Below are positions 9,392 to 59,329 of a stretch of DNA of 64,000 bases, piece by piece. Both the position numbers and the translations under genes were made by a program. The notes under the pieces were generated by a model. The model was not told where the DNA came from. It worked only from the letters and a program-made list of their open reading frames with translations, and made no database searches. The stretch is taken from IMG/VR virus record IMGVR_UViG_3300038443_002533, positions 128,001-192,000 of that record; one strand, given 5' to 3'. Source of the DNA: a virus (taxonomy: Duplodnaviria > Caudoviricetes). Numbering within the stretch: the first letter of the stretch is position 1; the number at the start of each line of letters is the position of its first letter.

Positions 9392-10513
9392 ATGCGCTTA
9401 TTTTTCGGGAGTCGAAAAATGCAACAAAACTTTACAGCGTTTGCCAAACCCAAGCTGGGTGTGATGATCGGCCGTTTCTCGTTCATCCACCGTCAGCACG
9501 AACGTACCCTGCAAATCATGGCGGCCGAGAACGACTATATCCTGGTCATGATCGGTTCGGCGAATCGCTGCGTGTCCAAGAAGAACCCGCATGAATTCGC
9601 TGTGCGTGCCGAGATCATGAGCAAGCTGCTGCGCCGGCTCAAACCGGACGGGCAGTTTCGCATCGTGTCGCTCAACGATACCCTCTACAACGAGGAACGG
9701 TGGAAGATGCGGGTGTACGGGGCTGGCGAGCAGTACGCGCAGCGGTGTGGCATCCATCCGGAACGCATCACGCTGTATGGGACCGACAAGGATGAATCGA
9801 CCTACTACCTGAACTCCTTCCCGCAATGGAAGACCAAGGACGTGGGGCGGGTCGAAGACATCGACGCTACGCGGCTGCGTGAGCTGTGGTTCCGTCATTC
9901 GCAGACGGTACCCGGTGGTTTGCGTCTCCAGGACCATCTGGTCCCCGAGATGTTCGACTACCTGAAAGACGGCCACAAGTTCAACGAGGCGTTGCAGAAG
10001 GACTGGTATTACCTCACGGTGACCGAGCCGGATAAGTTCAAGGACTATCCGTATCCTGAAGCCTTGAACGTCATGTGCGGCGATGCAATCGTGGAATGCG
10101 CTGGCCATATCCTGACCGTGACCCGGTCCGGTGATCTCGGCTATGGGCAAGTCGCACTGCCAGGTGGCCACAAGAACAAGAACGAAACCGCGTTCAATGC
10201 GGCGCTTCGGGAACTGTTCGAGGAAACCAACTTGCGTGTGCCGGAGCAGACCATCCGTAACTGCGTGCAACAAACGTACCTGTTCGACCACCCGGGCCGG
10301 ACGCTGTCGTCGGTGCCAAAATCGACGCTCGGCGTTTACGTCAAGATCGAGCCGCGTGACGGCAAGTTTCCCCGTGCCAACGGCGGGGATGATGCCGCGC
10401 ATCCGACGTTACCGAATGGTGGGATCCGCTGGATTCCCAAGTTCGACATCATCAGCGGTAAAGTCAAGATGTGGGACGACCACAATGACATCGTGGATTA
10501 TTTCACGGCGTAA
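9392..10513 (+). CDS. bifunctional NMN adenylyltransferase / Nudix ADP-ribose pyrophosphatase (NadM-Nudix, NatV-like)
   Basis: IGRF..HxxH, GSAN, NP, LND.LY, YYLNSFPQW, IDAT.LR; Nudix box GGHKNKNETAFNAALRELFEETNL. Confidence 0.9.
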   Translation: MRLFFGSRKMQQNFTAFAKPKLGVMIGRFSFIHRQHERTLQIMAAENDYILVMIGSANRCVSKKNPHEFAVRAEIMSKLLRRLKPDGQFRIVSLNDTLYNEERWKMRVYGAGEQYAQRCGIHPERITLYGTDKDESTYYLNSFPQWKTKDVGRVEDIDATRLRELWFRHSQTVPGGLRLQDHLVPEMFDYLKDGHKFNEALQKDWYYLTVTEPDKFKDYPYPEALNVMCGDAIVECAGHILTVTRSGDLGYGQVALPGGHKNKNETAFNAALRELFEETNLRVPEQTIRNCVQQTYLFDHPGRTLSSVPKSTLGVYVKIEPRDGKFPRANGGDDAAHPTLPNGGIRWIPKFDIISGKVKMWDDHNDIVDYFTA

Positions 10514-10584: not shown

Positions 10585-12138
10585 ATGCTGGAAATCGTAA
10601 AACCCTTCAACATCATCCTCTGGTGCGACACGTACAAGTTTGCTCACTGGGAAGAAATTCCGTTCGGTGTCAAGCAGATGGTGTCGGCGGTCGTGCCGCG
10701 CAAAGCCCTCTACGGCGATGACGGTGAATTCATCACCGACGAAATCGTGACGGCTGGACAAACGTTCATCGCGCACGTTTTCGCGACGGCCCGCCTCGAA
10801 CAGTGGATGATCGACGAAGCAGAAGTCGAAATTACCGAGCAGGGCTACAACTTCAACCGCGAAGGTTGGGAGTACATCCTCCGTACTTACGGCGGCCGTA
10901 TCCCCCTGACCATGTTCGGGGTCGAAGAAGGCCGTGTGGTTAAACCGCAAACGCCGATCCTGATGATCACCAATGAAGACGACGACCGGACCGCGTGGCT
11001 GGTGCCGTACTTCGAGCCGGTGATCCAGTCGGTCTCGTGGTCGATGACCTACACCGCCACCATCTGCCGTTACATGTTCACCGTGATGGCGTACTACGTA
11101 CTGCTGTCCGGCGGCAACATGAAAATGCTGGAATATCTGATCCACAACTTCGGTGATCGTGGAGCAGATGGCCCGGATGAAACCCCCGTGCTCAAAGGCA
11201 TTGCTCACGCGATGCTGTTCCTGGGCAGTGATTGCGGGCGCGCCAATCGCTACATCAAGGTGCTCTACAACACGTCCAAGCCGTACACCAGCTCGGTGGA
11301 AGCTACGGAACACACGACGGTCTGCCTGAATTCGGACGCGGAAACGCGTGACGACTTCGGCGGCATGCAGATGGTCATGCGCCGCCTCAAAGCTGTGGTC
11401 GAACGCAGCAAGCGCGGCATCGGTATCCCTGTGATCTCGACGGTGCCTGATACCTACGACGATGAACGTTTCGTCACGGTGTACGTGGCCGGCTTCAAGG
11501 TGGAAATCGAAAATTCGGGCGGACGTCTCGTCATTCGTCCGGACTCCGGTATCCCCAAGAAGAAACTGCCGCAAGTACTCGGCTGGCTGAAAGATATCTT
11601 CGGCACGACCTTGAACGAAGCTGGCTACCAAGACCTGCCATGGTGCATCGGGGCACTCTACGGTGACGGCATGAACGTTAACACGTTCGAACCTGTCGTG
11701 CGGGCAGCGGTGGTGGACCACAAGTACACCACCAACAACTTCCTGCTCGGCATGGGTGCCGGCATCACCAACGAAGGCTCCCGCGACAAACTGAGCTTCA
11801 GCATGAAAACGATCGCAGAACGCCGCGAATCGTGGAAGCGCGTGCTCAAGGAGCCGAAGTCCGACATGGGTAAGAAGTCGCTGTCGGGTCTGATCCGCAA
11901 TCGTGAAAACGAATACGGCGAACTCGAAACCTTCGACGCCTTGGCTTCGAACAGCTTGTACGAGATGTTCGTGCCGGGCCCGGGACACCGTCGCTGGCTC
12001 GACAAGGGCTATCGCGACTGGCGTCAATCGTTCGATGACACCCGCGCAAATGCGCAGAAAGGCGCCATCGACAAAGCGGCGAATCGTCTGGCCGCTGAAA
12101 AAGCAGTCAATGACGAAGCCGTCGCTGAAGTAGCGTAA
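10585..12138 (+). CDS. nadV: nicotinamide phosphoribosyltransferase (Nampt)
   Basis: DTYKFAH, HNFGDRG, ATEHT, DTYD, VIRPDSG, YGDG, GMG, KKSLSG. Confidence 0.88.
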   Translation: MLEIVKPFNIILWCDTYKFAHWEEIPFGVKQMVSAVVPRKALYGDDGEFITDEIVTAGQTFIAHVFATARLEQWMIDEAEVEITEQGYNFNREGWEYILRTYGGRIPLTMFGVEEGRVVKPQTPILMITNEDDDRTAWLVPYFEPVIQSVSWSMTYTATICRYMFTVMAYYVLLSGGNMKMLEYLIHNFGDRGADGPDETPVLKGIAHAMLFLGSDCGRANRYIKVLYNTSKPYTSSVEATEHTTVCLNSDAETRDDFGGMQMVMRRLKAVVERSKRGIGIPVISTVPDTYDDERFVTVYVAGFKVEIENSGGRLVIRPDSGIPKKKLPQVLGWLKDIFGTTLNEAGYQDLPWCIGALYGDGMNVNTFEPVVRAAVVDHKYTTNNFLLGMGAGITNEGSRDKLSFSMKTIAERRESWKRVLKEPKSDMGKKSLSGLIRNRENEYGELETFDALASNSLYEMFVPGPGHRRWLDKGYRDWRQSFDDTRANAQKGAIDKAANRLAAEKAVNDEAVAEVA

Positions 12139-33555: not shown

Positions 33556-33822
33556 ATGGCACTTATTCCTACTGGCGTTAACATCATCTACGATCTGTTG
33601 AACGCCCCGAAAGACAAGAACCCGCAAGAGCAGATGGCGGAACTGGGCATCACGTGCCAACGTGTTATCCCCGAACCCATCATCCATCTCTGGCGTTTCA
33701 TCTCTGTTGACCGCGCGACGATTCCCGCTGAGTTGCCCCCGTACCTCAGTCTGGTGTATCTGAACGTCCAGCAATGGAACGAAGAACTCGAAACGCTGAA
33801 GCAACTCAGCCTGAAGAAATAA
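33556..33822 (+). CDS. hypothetical protein
   Basis: 88-aa ORF after the HAD gene. Confidence 0.65.
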   Translation: MALIPTGVNIIYDLLNAPKDKNPQEQMAELGITCQRVIPEPIIHLWRFISVDRATIPAELPPYLSLVYLNVQQWNEELETLKQLSLKK

Positions 33823-33874
33823 ACGGCGTACCACCCACTTGACCCCGACCGCAGTCAGGACCAAGTGGTGTAAG

Positions 33875-34225
33875 TTACGGGTTGTACGGCACGGCCAAAC
33901 CGTTGCTGACGAGTTGATCGTTCAGGCTGGTCGAAGTATTCGGCAGATACACATCCGCCAGATAGCGACCATACTTCTCCTTCTTGTCCGCGACGGTTTG
34001 GATCACCACCGGGGCGTTAGCCGGCAGTTGTTGCTGAAGCCAAGCGCGTGAATCTTTCCCGGCTTGGGTGCTGACTTCGGGGGCGTTGATACCGTTGAAG
34101 CGGCAGGTCATGTTGATGTGGATATCGCATCCCAAGTCAACATTGAATTCTGCGGTATCGCCATCGATGACGCGAATCACGGTGGCGTTACGGATGTACA
34201 CATCTTTCTTTTTGGCGGCTGTCAT
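33875..34225 (-). CDS. thermonuclease (staphylococcal nuclease-like)
   Basis: VIRVIDGDT, RFNGINAPE, EKYGRYLA, LN..LV..GLA. Only convincing minus-strand gene. Confidence 0.9.
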   Translation of the reverse strand: MTAAKKKDVYIRNATVIRVIDGDTAEFNVDLGCDIHINMTCRFNGINAPEVSTQAGKDSRAWLQQQLPANAPVVIQTVADKKEKYGRYLADVYLPNTSTSLNDQLVSNGLAVPYNP

Positions 34226-34273
34226 GGTGGGCTCCTATGCAAAGGGGGTTCATAGCATCCGCGCAGTACCAAT

Positions 34274-34428
34274 GGTCAAGATGGCGAAGTGGAAGACGCA
34301 GCTGACGCTCCGGGTGCAAGTGATCAGTATTTGAACGAGCAGTAGGGTATCTACCGGGTCCATGATCGGGGCGGGTACTCAGATAAACTGTTCTAGTAGA
34401 ACGGAGGTTCGATTCCTTCTCTTGACCA
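34274..34428 (+). ncRNA. tRNA-like RNA 1 (155 nt; expanded anticodon and variable regions)
   Basis: GGTCAAGA/TCTTGACC acceptor, Leu/Ser-type D arm GCG-AAGTGGAAGA-CGC, T arm GGAGG-TTCGATT-CCTTC, ~105 nt between. Confidence 0.7.
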
Positions 34429-34439
34429 CTCAGTTTTAT

Positions 34440-34515
34440 GGGGAAGTCGCCCAGCAGGTTTATTGACCTGACCCACTGTAGGCACGCGCAGGTGCGAATC
34501 CTGCCTTCCCCGCCA
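34440..34515 (+). ncRNA. tRNA-like RNA 2 (76 nt; D and anticodon arms fused into one arm)
   Basis: GGGGAAG/CTTCCCC + G + CCA; T arm GCAGG-TGCGAAT-CCTGC. Confidence 0.75.
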
Positions 34516-34532
34516 CTCAACCGTAGTACGTA

Positions 34533-34692
34533 GGGCATGTAGCTCAGTGATAGAGCACCGTCCATTACCCTTGGGGTCGCTGGTTCGAGTCCAGCCTGGG
34601 GAGTATGCGAATACTCGCTGGTAGCTCAGATGGTTAGAGCACAAGGCTTGCTTAGACGGAGGTCGTGGGTTTGATCCCTGCCATGTCCATCA
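34533..34692 (+). ncRNA. tRNA-like RNA 3: twin tRNA (permuted tRNA nested in the anticodon loop of another)
   Basis: Outer GGGCATG/CATGTCC and CCGTC/GACGG. Inner CCTTG...T arm...CTGGGGA-GTAT-GCGA-ATAC-TCGCTGG...D arm...CAAGG. Confidence 0.85.
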
Positions 34693-34698
34693 AGAATT

Positions 34699-34807
34699 CT
34701 TAATAAGTGGTAAAGTAGATCAACGCGGAGAACCGACGCGCTACAAGGGATACCTCGCTCTGGTTGGTTCACTGGAACGAAGGAGTTTGACCCTGCCACT
34801 TATTAAG
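34699..34807 (+). ncRNA. tRNA-like RNA 4 (long closing stem, T-loop-like hairpin, internal domain)
   Basis: 14-bp stem CTTAATAAGTGGTA/TGCCACTTATTAAG; GTTTGACC loop next to the 3' strand. Confidence 0.5.
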
Positions 34808-34826
34808 TGTTTTTAAGTTTCACGTA

Positions 34827-34964
34827 GGGCGTTTAGCTCAGTTGGTAGAGCACGGCTAAAGGTGGGCACCGACAAACCCACACCAGCTTAACAGGCTGGG
34901 GCCGAAAGGCAGTCACCATTCATTAAAGCCGAGGTCATGTGTTCGAATCACGTAACGTCCACCA
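34827..34964 (+). ncRNA. tRNA-like RNA 5 (69-nt three-hairpin insert replacing the anticodon loop)
   Basis: GGGCGTT/AACGTCC+ACCA, canonical D arm, CGGCT/AGCCG stem, AGGTC, ATGTG-TTCGAAT-CACGT. Confidence 0.88.
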
Positions 34965-34973
34965 AGTTTCAAA

Positions 34974-35040
34974 GGGTGTGTAGCTCAGCTGGTAGAGCGT
35001 AGTCATGCAAGATTGTGGGGGTTCGAGTCCCCCCATTCTC
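34974..35040 (+). ncRNA. tRNA-like RNA 6 (67 nt; 6-nt anticodon loop ATGCAA, 1-nt variable region, no CCA)
   Basis: Canonical D arm and GGGGG-TTCGAGT-CCCCC T arm. Confidence 0.7.
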
Positions 35041-35046
35041 TCGATT

Positions 35047-35138
35047 GGGAATGTGGCGGAATTGGTAGACGCGCCGTTCTAACGGACGGTTATCACATTA
35101 GGCTAAGGTCATGGGTTCAAATCCTGTCACATCCACCA
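35047..35138 (+). ncRNA. tRNA-like RNA 7 (Leu-like; anticodon loop collapsed to 4 nt)
   Basis: GCGGAATTGGTAGACGC D arm, CCGT-TCTA-ACGG, long variable region, T arm, CACATCC-ACCA. Confidence 0.72.
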
Positions 35139-35156
35139 AGTTTCAAGCAGTACCGT

Positions 35157-35234
35157 AGGGGAGTCGCCAAGTTGGTCCAAGGCCCCGGATTTTGATTCCG
35201 GCATTCGAAGGTTCGAATCCTTCCTCCTCTGCCA
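35157..35234 (+). tRNA. tRNA-Gln(TTG)
   Basis: Full cloverleaf AGGGGAG/CTCCTCT, CCGGA-TTTTGAT-TCCGG, G-CCA end. Confidence 0.95.
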
Positions 35235-35315
35235 GATTTTCGTAGGACTGTTTGATGAACAGAGTAAAATCATCATGGTAGAGATACCACTTACTAGGCA
35301 CTAGGAGAATGTACC

Positions 35316-35780
35316 ATGGCTGGATTTGTGAAATTGATGTCGAATGAAAACCTGCCGGACGCAAGTCCGTTCAAAGGCTATCAGCTGATCAGCTTACCGG
35401 ACGCTGGCAAGGTCGAATTCAAACGTAATGAGCGAGGTCTCGATACGTGTGTGATCTACACCCCGGAGCATGATCCAGAAGAATACCTGATGTACGGCAA
35501 TGCGTATATCCTGAGCGACTCGGGTAAAACCATTGCTTCCCATGGCACCAACGTGCCCTGCGCATTGGAACCGGGTCAAGAGATCAATGACGCTAAGGTG
35601 GCGGTTAGCGCACTGCTTACGCTGGAACCTGACGATCTGAAAGCGGCCCTTTGCCATCTGGTTGCAACTAAGCCGGAAACCATCCGTGTCATGGGTGGCG
35701 TCATAGCCAATTTGGCGCGGGCCGGAAACGAAGCTGCTATTTACTCAATTCGTCCCGCGGTCGAACACATCAGCACGTAA
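35316..35780 (+). CDS. conserved hypothetical phage protein (GNAYILSDSGKTI motif)
   Basis: SD AGGAG; motif common in phage proteins. Confidence 0.75.
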   Translation: MAGFVKLMSNENLPDASPFKGYQLISLPDAGKVEFKRNERGLDTCVIYTPEHDPEEYLMYGNAYILSDSGKTIASHGTNVPCALEPGQEINDAKVAVSALLTLEPDDLKAALCHLVATKPETIRVMGGVIANLARAGNEAAIYSIRPAVEHIST

Positions 35781-35956
35781 CACCGATCAATGCCCAAGTC
35801 AGTTATTCCCTCCAACCGATTTCGTCATGAAAGATGGCGCATCTGGCTAAAAGTGAATTCCAAGGCCTGACTAGGGCGCCCCTTTGGCTTTATTAGTTGA
35901 AAGAGGTGTTGTGCCACCACACGCCGTCAATCGAGTAGACTAATAAAGCCTTCCCT

Positions 35957-36032
35957 TCCCCGATAGCTCAGCCGGTAGAGCGACGGACTGTTAATCCGCA
36001 GGTCCCTGGTTCGAATCCAGGTCGGGGAGCCA
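35957..36032 (+). tRNA. tRNA-Asn(GTT)
   Basis: TCCCCGA/TCGGGGA, loop CTGTTAA, G-CCA end. Confidence 0.96.
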
Positions 36033-36039
36033 CGAACAT

Positions 36040-36860
36040 AAAAGCTGGAATCTAAGCTAGTAGAGTTATCCTTTAACTTGTGCTGGGGTTGTGTTGTTGA
36101 CACTTTACAACTAAGGCTTGGGTTCCGCCTTTTGTGTTTAACTGTCTTTGGGTTTGACTTGGATCGACCGCGAGTCGCAATTACCATACGAGCGATTACG
36201 ATTATCGAAGAACATATTGGCCTGACTCACAAGTCACCTGGTCAAACCCACCCTTTTTCAGAGGACGCACGTGAGGTCGTGCAGGCTTGAGTATCAAGTC
36301 TAGAATGGGCGTGGCTCCTTACACCTACGGGGATACTTAAGGGAGTCGAGGGAAGTGAGATCTCATCAATCTCCACAATGTGGGTGCAACCCACCCCAAT
36401 ACTCGCACACAGGAACGCCGTGGAAATCGGTGAACAACCAGGAGATGAGCCTGGTCCTCTGAGCTATTCTAAATAAAGGTACTGATGAGCCGTGGAAGTC
36501 GGCCCCTGTGCATACAGGCAAGGTTGCAAACCCTTCGAAACATCTCTTGCGCTTCAAGATACAACGAGATGTATACCAATGGACTTAACAGTGGTAGCCG
36601 TTGCTCTTGTCACCTCCGGGGTCTTGATGGGAGTCTAGTAGCGTTTCTGACACGAGCGCTGAAACTGTACGACTGGTTCAACCCTGTCGGCGTCTGTCAA
36701 ACGTCGTGGAGAGAGGATCAGTAAGTTGTACAACGCGTAAGCTGTGCCGCACGCTCCTAGTGAGCGGGTTCAGTGAGAAGCTAGGTCGTGCAAGACCAAG
36801 TTGTGCAGCCATTGTGAGATTGCGTCGGTTTGGCCAGACTGGCGCAGTTGTATCGGTGTG
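36040..36860 (+). ncRNA. candidate large structured ncRNA (~800 nt)
   Basis: No credible ORF. Perfect 10-bp long-range helix 36149-36158/36241-36250 plus many hairpins. Confidence 0.55.
36478..36577 (+). ncRNA. type I hammerhead ribozyme-like core with multibranched stem II
   Basis: GGTA-CTGATGA-G...C-GAAA-CATCTC...GAGATG-TA-TACC. Confidence 0.6.
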
Positions 36861-38739: not shown

Positions 38740-38823
38740 TAGTATGTAGTACGTAGTAGGTAGTGCATGATTTATCGGTGGAGATGGTGGGATCGAAAAC
38801 TCCATTCACCATCGAGAAAAATC

Positions 38824-39393
38824 ATGAAGAAAATTGCATCTTTGTTTCAACGTAACTATGACGGCGATCGTCAAGTGCGTAATGAAGTCGTTCCGGGTTC
38901 GGAATGGGTAATCCACGGCGAAGGGTATGCGACCCGTAAATGGGATGGCATGGCTATTAAGCTGGAGAACGCTCAGTTCTTTAAGCGTTATGATGCGAAG
39001 GCTGGCAGAACACCGCCCCCTGAATTCATTCCTGCCCAACCGGCGCCTGATCCACAAACTGGCCACTGGCCTGGTTGGGTGCCGTTGCAAGGGAAAGAAC
39101 TCAATCGCGTAGTAGCGGCGTATCAAGACAGCGGCATCACGGAAGACGGCACATTCGAATTCTGTGGACCGACGATTGGTACCCGCCATGGCGCCAACCC
39201 TGAACGGCTCACCAAGCACATCCTGGTGCCCCACGGGCAAGACATCCTGGCCGACTGTCCGCGTGACTTCGATGGGCTCAAAGCCTATCTGGCGAATGCG
39301 GATATCGAAGGGGTGGTGTGGTGGCATCCGGATGGTCGTAAGGTCAAGATCAAAGCAGCTGATTTTGGCCTCGTCAGGCACGCAGTAATCTGA
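38824..39393 (+). CDS. DUF5565 / RLIG1(C12orf29)-like ATP-dependent RNA ligase
   Basis: Motif I TRKWDG, KRYD, GHWPGW, GTFEFCG, L.PHG, motif IV EGVVW, motif V KIK. Confidence 0.75.
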   Translation: MKKIASLFQRNYDGDRQVRNEVVPGSEWVIHGEGYATRKWDGMAIKLENAQFFKRYDAKAGRTPPPEFIPAQPAPDPQTGHWPGWVPLQGKELNRVVAAYQDSGITEDGTFEFCGPTIGTRHGANPERLTKHILVPHGQDILADCPRDFDGLKAYLANADIEGVVWWHPDGRKVKIKAADFGLVRHAVI

Positions 39394-58066: not shown

Positions 58067-59329
58067 ATGCAGATGTATTGGGTAGGTGGCGCCGTCCGCG
58101 ATCGACTCCTCGGGATGCAACCGAAAGATATCGATGTCGTGGTGGTGGGTTCCACGGCCGAAGAAATGTTGGATAATGGCTTTCGTCAAATCGGTAAAGA
58201 CTTCCCGATCTTTATCAGTCGGCTCGACGAGCTGCATGGCGATAAAGCCGAGTATTCGCTCGCGCGTCGTTCCCGCAAAAATGGAAATGCCGATTTCGGT
58301 CCGGAAGTCACCCTCAAAGAAGATCTCGGTAAACGGGATCTGACCATCAACGCCATGGCCATCGAGATCAATGGCTTCCTGAATAGCCATACGTTTCAGC
58401 TGGTCGACCCGTATTGCGGGCACGATGATCTGCTGAATAAGGTGTTGCGGATGGTGAGCAGCGAAGCCTTCTATGAAGACCCGATCCGGGTGTTGCGTGT
58501 GGCGAGATTCGCTGCGCGTTACCCGGACTTCAGGATCGATCCCGACACCATGGAAACCATGTGGACCATGGTGTTCGAGGGGTTGCTCGATAACCTCGTC
58601 CCGGAACGGGTGTGGAAGGAACTGTCGCGGGGTCTGATGGAAGTCAAGCCTTCGCGGATGTTGCAAGTCTTGCGGCAATGCGGAGCGTTGGAAAAGATTC
58701 TGCCGGAAGTCGATGCGCTGTACGGTGTCCCGCAACCGGAGAAACACCACCCGGAAGTCGACACGGGTATCCACATCGAGCAAGTCCTCGATTATGCGGC
58801 CAGCCAGAACTTCGATTTGCCAGTTCGGTTCGCGTGCTTGATGCATGATCTCGGCAAAGCCTTGTCGCCGAAGGACACCTGGCCGGCCCACCACGGGCAT
58901 GAAGGGGCGGGAGCGGACCTCGTGTCGAATGTGTGCGTGCGTTTGAACGTCCCGATGACCCTCGCCAAAATCGCGATCCAAACGACGACGTGGCACGGTG
59001 TGATCCACCAGTCCATGAAGGTCAAGCACACCACGATCGTGAAGCTCTTGCGGCACTGCGATGCGTTCCGTAACCCGGACCGTTTCCAATACGTGCTGCA
59101 AGCCTGCATGTGCGATGCCCGCGGGCGTAAGTCCGACACGGTCAGTTTCGAAAACGTCGAGTACCCGCAGGCCATGCGCTTGAGCGGTGCTCTGTGGGCT
59201 GCCCGCCAAATCAAGGGCAATGAGATCGCGAAGCAATTCCAAGATCGTCCGGAATACATCGCAGTCAGTATGCATGCGGCACGTGCTCGCGCCATCAAAG
59301 CGTTCGACCGTCAACAGAAAGGAGCTTAA
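58067..59329 (+). CDS. cca: class II tRNA nucleotidyltransferase with HD domain (multifunctional CCA protein-like)
   Basis: VGGAVRD.LLG, DIDVVV, GKDFP.F, EDL.KRD.TINAMA, EDP.RVLR.ARFAAR, ERVW.E, HHPE.D.G.H, HDLGK. Confidence 0.93.
   Translation: MQMYWVGGAVRDRLLGMQPKDIDVVVVGSTAEEMLDNGFRQIGKDFPIFISRLDELHGDKAEYSLARRSRKNGNADFGPEVTLKEDLGKRDLTINAMAIEINGFLNSHTFQLVDPYCGHDDLLNKVLRMVSSEAFYEDPIRVLRVARFAARYPDFRIDPDTMETMWTMVFEGLLDNLVPERVWKELSRGLMEVKPSRMLQVLRQCGALEKILPEVDALYGVPQPEKHHPEVDTGIHIEQVLDYAASQNFDLPVRFACLMHDLGKALSPKDTWPAHHGHEGAGADLVSNVCVRLNVPMTLAKIAIQTTTWHGVIHQSMKVKHTTIVKLLRHCDAFRNPDRFQYVLQACMCDARGRKSDTVSFENVEYPQAMRLSGALWAARQIKGNEIAKQFQDRPEYIAVSMHAARARAIKAFDRQQKGA

Follow-up and report, generated by a model that had tools for sequence, protein, structure and literature searches.

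A tRNA-shaped module nested at the anticodon position of another in the tRNA gene cluster of an uncultured jumbo phage

The locus and the parts of the nested element

The DNA analyzed here (the window, 64,000 nt) represents bases 128001–192000 of the IMG/VR phage record IMGVR_UViG_3300038443_002533, a complete jumbo phage genome of 272 kb with direct terminal repeats (hereafter G000). A nested RNA element of ~157–160 nt (referred to below as the twin) was located at 34533–34692 on the plus strand, in the tRNA gene cluster of this phage. It comprises an outer tRNA-shaped module (module A) and an inner one (module B). Module B lies between the two strands of the 5-bp anticodon-type stem of module A, which is the place of an anticodon loop. 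The order inside module B is T arm, closed acceptor-like hairpin and D arm, so that its 3′ half stands upstream of its 5′ half. The parts of the element are as follows.

34533–34539 (+): 5′ strand of the module A (outer) acceptor, GGGCATG, paired with 34682–34688 (7/7 pairs)
34542–34556 (+): D arm of module A, GCTC-AGTGATA-GAGC, following U8-A9; inside a partial tRNA-model match at 34539–34596 (27.1 bits)
34558–34562 (+): 5′ strand of the module A anticodon-type stem, CCGTC, paired with GACGG at 34655–34659 (5/5 in all copies)
34563–34568 (+): junction J1, CATTAC, 6 nt, unpaired
34569–34578 (+): 3′ strand of the module B (inner) closing stem, CCTTG, paired with 34642–34646, and the variable-loop-like GGGTC
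34579–34595 (+): T arm of module B, GCTGG-TTCGAGT-CCAGC
34596–34621 (+): closed acceptor-like hairpin of module B, 11 layers with one G·G mismatch and a GCGA loop; recovered in the minimum free energy (MFE) fold
34622–34646 (+): U8-A9 of module B, its D arm GCTC-AGATGGTTA-GAGC, A26 and the 5′ strand of the closing stem, CAAGG; seen in the YrlA model alignment
34647–34654 (+): junction J2, CTTGCTTA, 8 nt, unpaired
34655–34664 (+): 3′ strand of the module A anticodon-type stem, GACGG, and the variable loop AGGTC
34665–34681 (+): T arm of module A, GTGGG-TTTGATC-CCTGC
34682–34692 (+): 3′ strand of the module A acceptor, CATGTCC, the discriminator A73, then TCA

The top of the outer acceptor reads G1-C72, G2-C71 and G3·U70, with A73 at 34689, and the D arm of module B itself occupies 34624–34640. 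Neither module has an anticodon loop, and the 5-bp stem with a 7-nt loop of a canonical tRNA is therefore missing from both. ARAGORN called no tRNA at the element, and the Rfam tRNA model (RF00005) gave only two partial matches of 27.1 and 18.4 bits, which are below the cut-off of 29.

The topology is defined by four stems, the two acceptors and the two anticodon-type stems, with 24 pairs in total. When the halves are paired across each other, the window copy forms 7+6+5+5 = 23 of these pairs, vs. 2+3+2+1 = 8 when the same letters are read as two tandem tRNAs, which is about the level of chance. In the MFE fold, nucleotides 1–7 of the element were paired with its 3′ end. The original prediction, made from the letters of the window, had described a permuted tRNA-like module nested at the anticodon position of another tRNA-like body, in which only the swapped pairing works. 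Every segment that it named was found in its place, and the structural reading holds.

Homologous copies of the element

Relatives of the phage were reached via the proteins encoded next to the element. Two uncultured jumbo phages, G001 (322 kb) and G002 (226 kb), contained between them three further full copies (L003:3325–3476, L002:1209–1368, and L002:1387–1558). In a hand alignment, letter-checked against the loci, these copies formed 20–23 of the 24 pairs in the swapped reading vs. 6–12 in the tandem reading, and the unconstrained MFE fold of L002:1387–1558 in G001 recovered the entire nested fold. Two reduced copies were found as well, one in G001 (L002:1060–1189) and the other in G005 (L202:1501–1621). 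G005 is the closest relative, with 69% identity in the CCA-adding enzyme, and it carries only the reduced ortholog. Both reduced copies retained the chassis (the body of module A), the inner T arm, a hairpin of 7–9 bp and a single-stranded, GG-containing TGGTTAA, and both lacked the inner D stem and the inner closing stem. As read in the sequence of the G005 copy, the chassis was almost unchanged (GGGCATG/CATGTCC, A73, and a CCA 3′ end).

A covariance model (R1) was built from the four full copies. In the alignment fitted to this model, 96.5% of the cells paired and 22 of 45 pairs were changed on both sides, figures that lean towards the structure, as the model came from the same four sequences. 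None of 500 shuffles matched this pairing and covariation, and the pairing fell to 33–46% when the partner strand was slid by 1–3 columns. By hand alignment, both sides had changed in five of the seven pairs of the outer acceptor, two of the five pairs of the outer anticodon stem, and four of the five pairs of the inner closing stem. The T arm of module A showed such changes among copies in four of five pairs. The inner hairpin of the L002 copies was of unrelated sequence, and still had 10–12 bp. Its loop varied among copies (GCGA, GAAG, ACTTC, and TCAA); thus, the GNRA cap that had been noted on the acceptor of module B is present in the window copy, as GCGA, but is not conserved. All nine helices stayed paired across copies whose stem sequences differ, and the nucleotides of the tertiary contacts (U8, A14, G15/C48, G18G19, and T54-A58) were kept in both modules. 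In module A, the T-loop U56 is matched with the D-loop A19 in the window copy, and the G005 ortholog has G19/C56. As L002:1209–1368 has A19/C56, this tertiary covariation was regarded as suggestive only.

The controls, ~40 ordinary tandem tRNA pairs of other phages (from a set of 130 other IMG/VR phage contigs), showed normal pairing (7+7, tandem). The scores of the homologs, the covariation compared with shuffles, and these tandem-tRNA controls indicated that the nested pairing is beyond chance.

The distribution of the element was narrow in all searches. No additional copy was found by R1 in G000, G001, and G002 beyond their tRNA clusters. Over 50 phage records encoding a related CCA-adding enzyme, R1 detected a chassis element in G005 only, and the other matches examined among these records were ordinary tRNA pairs. 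A scan of IMG/VR for a T loop and a D arm separated by 24–36 nt returned 91 stretches. Outside the clade, each of those that could be analysed proved to be either an ordinary tandem tRNA pair or a stand-alone YrlA-like RNA. Similarity between the element and GenBank phages was at the level of tRNA or of YrlA only. No cultured relative of the phage was found (the top protein identity was 34%), and a scan of metagenome contigs with the 154-aa neighbour protein detected no relative. Promoters and terminators were searched for in 33800–36400, and none was found, vs. about two expected by chance.

Two root metatranscriptome libraries contained parts of the cluster. Their contigs came from a relative without 34549–35105, and the element had almost no coverage. 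In these contigs (runs X2 and X3), 34271–34548 was joined to 35106–35232, and this close relative has thus lost ~440 nt of the cluster, the twin among them. In the same relative, the first 16 nt of the twin were joined to a type-2-like element, which indicated recombination among the chassis RNAs.

Apparent origin and possible function of the two modules

Module A looks derived from a tRNA-Ala, to judge from G1-C72, G2-C71, G3·U70, A73, the variable loop AGGTC and a T loop of the GATC type. G3·U70 together with A73 occurred in the window copy, the G005 ortholog, the two full L002 copies (if one G is taken as bulged) and a further two of the window's chassis RNAs. All five chassis RNAs of G001 (L002:1060–1189, 1209–1368, 1387–1558, 1580–1744, and 2489–2626) are best read with a single G bulging out of the 3′ acceptor strand. 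It sits between acceptor pairs 4 and 5 from the top, and this reading restores seven pairs and A73-CCA. This register was chosen by the MFE folds of L002:1387–1558 and L002:1580–1744 (two of the three that were folded). Most homologs end with N73-CCA, followed by a recurring AGTTTCAA trailer. The CCA-AGTTTCAA trailer was observed behind many chassis RNAs in three phages, at 34962–34972 and 35136–35146 in the window and in the L002 and L003 spacers, and it may be a processing signal or the trace of a duplication. The phage also encodes an enzyme for this end of the molecule:

58067–59329 (+): tRNA nucleotidyltransferase (CCA-adding enzyme; PHROG 2244, E = 4.6e-105)

This enzyme could finish the 3′ terminus of the twin.

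Module B, the payload, looks derived from a tRNA-Asn by its sequence. Its 3′ half was identical to the phages' own tRNA-Asn at 24–27 of 30 positions (window and L003 copies; 24/30 in the window), vs. 16–17 of 30 for tRNA-Gln. The tRNA-Asn signature that had been pointed out in module B is thus real, but it reflects ancestry, because of this identity, and it is absent from the L002 copies.

The lengths of J1 and J2 in the four full copies were 6+8, 0+6, 7+4, and 8+17 nt, which gave sums of 14, 6, 11, and 25 nt; J1 was 0 nt in L003, where the stems abut. The original prediction had counted the two junctions as exactly two 7-nt anticodon loops and had named conservation of their sum in homologs as a check. 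The count of 14 nt is correct in the window copy. Since the sum varies among copies, its equality with two loops is a coincidence of that one copy, and the proposed maturation by splicing fails this check.

The layout of module B (34569–34646) is that of the permuted tRNA-like domain of YrlA Y RNAs. The Rfam YrlA model (RF02553) aligned to 34558–34662 (31.3 bits, E = 4e-4) with its T, acceptor-like and D helices, at a score below the gathering cut-off of 69 bits. The middle helix of the model (positions 13–19 with 91–97), which connects the basal stem to the tRNA-like domain, was gapped out of this alignment. Over 85 nt, the region of the element shared 79% identity with one of the two YrlA-like RNAs of Vibrio phage BONAISHI. 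The Ro-binding motif of the basal stem, GNCGAAN0-1G, was absent from all four full copies. In 254 bacteria and 22 phages, YrlA RNAs have been reported beside Ro60 genes, and the YrlA module bears tRNA modifications (Chen et al., 2014; PMC4201824). The statement that a permuted tRNA topology was not known from phage is therefore superseded, as the YrlA-type module had been reported in those 22 bacteriophages (PMC4201824).

A Ro60/Rsr (TROVE) gene on the same strand within ~4 kb was taken as a mark of bacterial Y RNAs. The genomes of G000, G001, and G002 contained no TROVE and no DUF2828 protein, and G000 also had no homolog of the Ro-like protein of BONAISHI. G000 and G001 are 100% complete, G005 lay outside this search, and the positive controls (BONAISHI, G003, G004, and an Enterococcus phage) were matched. 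All four phage lineages with a stand-alone module that were checked had a Ro-like gene, which lies just downstream of the module RNA in BONAISHI and in the Enterococcus phage. Pairs of YrlA-like RNAs, unannotated and below the cut-off, were observed at L001:2985–3298 (Vibrio phage BONAISHI) and L118:1146–1599 (Enterococcus phage vB_OCPT_Ben). The protein just downstream of such pairs is TROVE in BONAISHI, and a "hypothetical" protein with DUF2828/DUF7788 in Schiekvirus.

The nested fold is conserved with covariation, no junction of the size of an anticodon loop is conserved, and no phage Ro protein is present. We consider it fairly probable that the twin is one non-decoding RNA of ~157–160 nt, a single-chain, domain-swapped pair of tRNA-shaped modules that forms a bivalent two-elbow mimic on a tRNA chassis. 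The original prediction had offered an unspliced, anticodon-less mimic with two elbows as its fallback, and this is the reading that the variable junctions and the conserved nested fold support. The RNA would be transcribed together with the phage tRNA cluster, released at the outer acceptor by RNase P and 3′ trimming, completed by a CCA-adding enzyme (one being encoded by the phage), and would not be spliced into two tRNAs. Alanyl-tRNA synthetase (AlaRS) reads G3·U70 and not the anticodon, with transfer-messenger RNA (tmRNA) as the precedent, and for this reason it may charge the outer acceptor with alanine. The chassis would provide processing and stability. The payload would consist of a second acceptor/T minihelix and a tRNA elbow, which are taken as its conserved core because the reduced copies retain them. 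The twin might then serve, independently of Ro, as a decoy or an adaptor, with elbow- or acceptor-reading proteins as its targets.

Several points weigh against this explanation. The production of the RNA and its ends are predictions from the sequence, as is the putative decoy or adaptor function. The nested fold has an energy of −54.0 kcal/mol, compared with −55.9 for the MFE fold, and the MFE z-score against shuffled sequences is −0.3, so that the fold is thermodynamically unexceptional and folding energy was dropped as a discriminator. The carriers of the element are four uncultured phage genomes only, so the covariation comes from few sequences, and part of it may be pairing inherited from distinct ancestral tRNAs rather than compensation after the nesting. 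The outer acceptor of L003 is weak, with 5/7 pairs (alternatively, 6 bp and a 2-nt bulge). Neither L003 nor the reduced L002 copy has G3·U70, and alanine identity was therefore rejected as a universal feature. In addition, the window copy ends with TCA, not CCA; the G005 ortholog ends with CCA.

Other explanations were weighed. A broader one holds that the clade uses the alanine-identity chassis as a natural tRNA scaffold that excises, stabilizes, CCA-tails and perhaps alanylates its payloads, the payload of the twin being itself tRNA-shaped; we regard it as a tentative and rather doubtful extension. In that case, the bivalent mimic might bridge AlaRS, EF-Tu or the CCA enzyme at the outer acceptor and an elbow reader at the inner module, and opening by RNase P of the variants with 7-bp hairpins could instead yield a two-chain RNA with two acceptor ends. 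The twin might also be a genuine YrlA-type Y RNA that works with a host Ro60/Rsr and has a tRNA body in place of the basal stem, but this appears unlikely. The YrlA layout and the RF02553 match of the inner module, and its closeness to phage YrlA-like RNAs, would fit, and the host could supply Rsr, which is encoded by ~5% of bacteria (PMC4201824). However, 31 bits is far below 69, the middle helix and GNCGAAN0-1G are missing, the four other lineages with stand-alone modules that were checked carry a Ro-like gene of their own, and the twin phages have no TROVE or DUF2828, which would have been expected in the complete G000 and G001 if present. A two-chain "Siamese" RNA with two open acceptor ends, formed if RNase P also cuts the inner hairpin and CCA is added there, is quite unlikely. 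Its precedent is the YrlA of Mycobacterium smegmatis, in which the 7-bp acceptor hairpin is an in vivo substrate of RNase P and of CCA addition (PMC4201824), and inner hairpins of 7 bp with loops of 4–6 nt occur in a second twin of the window (below), in its L002 ortholog and in the reduced G005 copy; the phage-encoded CCA-adding enzyme agrees with this as well. In all four full copies, however, the inner helix continues for 10–12 layers past the acceptor position. Moreover, position 73 is paired with −1 in the window copy and the L003 ortholog, as in Salmonella YrlA and Deinococcus Yrn1, which are not cut (PMC4201824).

That the twin is a non-functional relic of two tandem tRNA genes, which recombination or duplication scrambled and which serves no selected role, would be in line with the fast rearrangement of the cluster, with the closest relative having the reduced form only, and with the imperfect outer acceptor of L003. 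We hold this to be improbable, given that nine helices remain paired despite differing stem sequences, that the tertiary-contact nucleotides are preserved in both modules, and that the reduced form has one layout in two genomes. The idea with which the study of this locus began, that cleavage within J1 and J2 and cross-ligation yield a linear tRNA A together with an Asn-like tRNA B that is circular and permuted, each with a 7-nt anticodon loop, is now extremely improbable. It could draw on the 14 nt of the window copy, on the resemblance of B to tRNA-Asn and on an RLIG1-like ligase 4 kb downstream. Against it, the other full copies have sums of 6, 11, and 25 nt and in one case a junction of 0 nt, the inner closing stem is missing from the reduced copies, and the junctions have no conserved U33 or R37 pattern. 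The phage genome, when searched, contained neither a tRNA-splicing endonuclease (tRNA_int_endo) nor RtcB, and bacterial hosts lack a tRNA-splicing endonuclease. Furthermore, a circular B would have no chargeable 3′ end, as a hairpin of 10–12 bp closes its acceptor. The enzymes that had been listed as neighbours were confirmed in part: a homolog of SNase (on the opposite strand) and a weak RLIG1-like ligase 4 kb away exist, but the supposed HAD phosphatase had no Pfam or PHROG match, and its identification was rejected. The phage encodes the RLIG1-like RNA ligase (38767–39393, a weak match), the SNase-like nuclease (33875–34225, minus strand), a nicotinamide phosphoribosyltransferase (10585–12138), and a cytidyltransferase-family protein (9392–10513) with a weak MutT/NUDIX match.

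The twin shares features with several known systems. With YrlA it has in common the permuted module, the closing stem, and the tRNA tertiary-contact nucleotides of module B, and YrlA also occurs in phages. It differs from YrlA in that module B stands on a whole tRNA-like body and not on a Ro-binding basal stem, GNCGAAN0-1G is missing, the model score is 31 vs. 69 bits, and there is no Ro-like gene nearby or genome-wide. With tmRNA it shares an acceptor of alanine identity (G3·U70) and a T arm without an anticodon, the anticodon side leading into other RNA. The GG strand of the reduced copies, without a D stem, resembles what we take to be its counterpart, the D-loop analogue of tmRNA. Unlike tmRNA, the twin has no tag reading frame and no pseudoknots, and no tmRNA was detected in the window by ARAGORN or Rfam. 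A permuted (two-piece) gene order exists for tmRNA. Such a gene, of the alpha type, was observed within a large tRNA cluster of an unrelated IMG/VR phage (L083:3913–4204).

Permuted tRNA genes, with the 3′ half ahead of the 5′ half, are also found in Cyanidioschyzon merolae and certain archaea. A short linker connects their acceptor ends, and a circular intermediate with a bulge-helix-bulge is processed by the splicing endonuclease to a decoding tRNA with an intact anticodon. Module B has the same 3′-before-5′ order and linked acceptor ends, whereas the twin has no anticodon, no conserved junction and no phage-encoded endonuclease. Stable non-tRNA RNAs among phage tRNA genes, co-processed with them, are represented by species 1 and 2 of phage T4 (rnaC and rnaD). 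The likeness to these is by description, and a nested architecture of two tRNAs is not known for them. In the engineered tRNA scaffold of Ponchon and Dardel, a payload RNA reportedly replaces the anticodon loop and the product is processed and stabilized like a tRNA. The window likewise has several chassis RNAs with different payloads, but the twin occurs naturally, in a phage, and carries a payload with a tRNA shape of its own. The literature searches turned up neither a nested or two-headed tRNA nor a half-swapped single chain forming two tRNA modules, in phages or elsewhere. The YrlA module, the tRNA-like chassis and the stable RNAs of phage tRNA clusters are thus known parts, and what is new is their combination and the independence from Ro.

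A permuted Y RNA module that is usable on a tRNA body without Ro bears on the role of this module in general. Phage tRNA clusters can conceal families of non-decoding chassis RNAs, which tRNA finders miss or misread as tandem tRNAs. If AlaRS does charge the outer acceptor, the twin would be a new natural RNA aminoacylated independently of an anticodon, beside tmRNA and the tRNA-like structures of plant viruses.

Other RNAs of the tRNA cluster

The cluster at 34274–35138 is a run of tRNA-like RNAs on the plus strand, followed by a true tRNA-Gln and tRNA-Asn. In several of its RNAs, the acceptor, D, and T arms are retained and the anticodon loop is replaced by other RNA. The cluster rearranges quickly, as copy number and order differ between relatives. 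It includes another such RNA:

34974–35138 (+): second twin of a different kind, with the acceptor strands alone swapped (7/7 + 7/7) and the outer acceptor GGGTGTG/CACATCC-A-CCA

In the tandem reading, the acceptors of the second twin form only 6/7 + 5/7 pairs. R1 scored 65 bits over its whole 165 nt, and the MFE fold joined its 5′ and 3′ ends. Its ortholog is L002:1580–1744. The inner hairpin has exactly 7 bp, with a loop of 6 nt in the window and 4–6 nt across the window and L002. Rfam read the second twin as two tandem tRNAs, and part of the L002 ortholog was called a tRNA-Ile(AAT) by ARAGORN. The sequence of its outer acceptor recurs without change in the acceptor of a phage tRNA-Ala(TGC) in L200. 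A local anticodon-like hairpin is kept in both halves. Its 5′ strand TAGTC (CGATC in L002) can pair either locally or with the distal GGCTA (GATCG in L002), and both partners covary.

The RNA at 34827–34964 (L202:1019–1148; L002:2489–2626) has a tRNA-Ala-like chassis with G3·U70, A73, and CCA, and a structured insert of ~70 nt where the anticodon loop would be. The hairpins of this insert covary between the window and G005 (CCAGC..GCTGG vs. CCGGC..GCCGG), and GCC-GAAA-GGC is kept. On a chassis of this type, G001 has an unrelated insert. At 34274–34432 (L003:3484–3643), a tRNA-like RNA with the acceptor GTCAAGA/TCTTGAC has an insertion of ~100 nt that separates its D arm from its T arm. Two phages share this RNA with 91% identity, and its only Rfam match is a weak, tRNA-Sec-like one. 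A tRNA-like element of 77 nt with an odd middle part (GGGGAAG...CTTCCCC-G-CCA) lies at 34440–34516. The RNA at 34701–34808, of ~108 nt, is closed by an 11-bp stem (TTAATAAGTGG/CCACTTATTAA).

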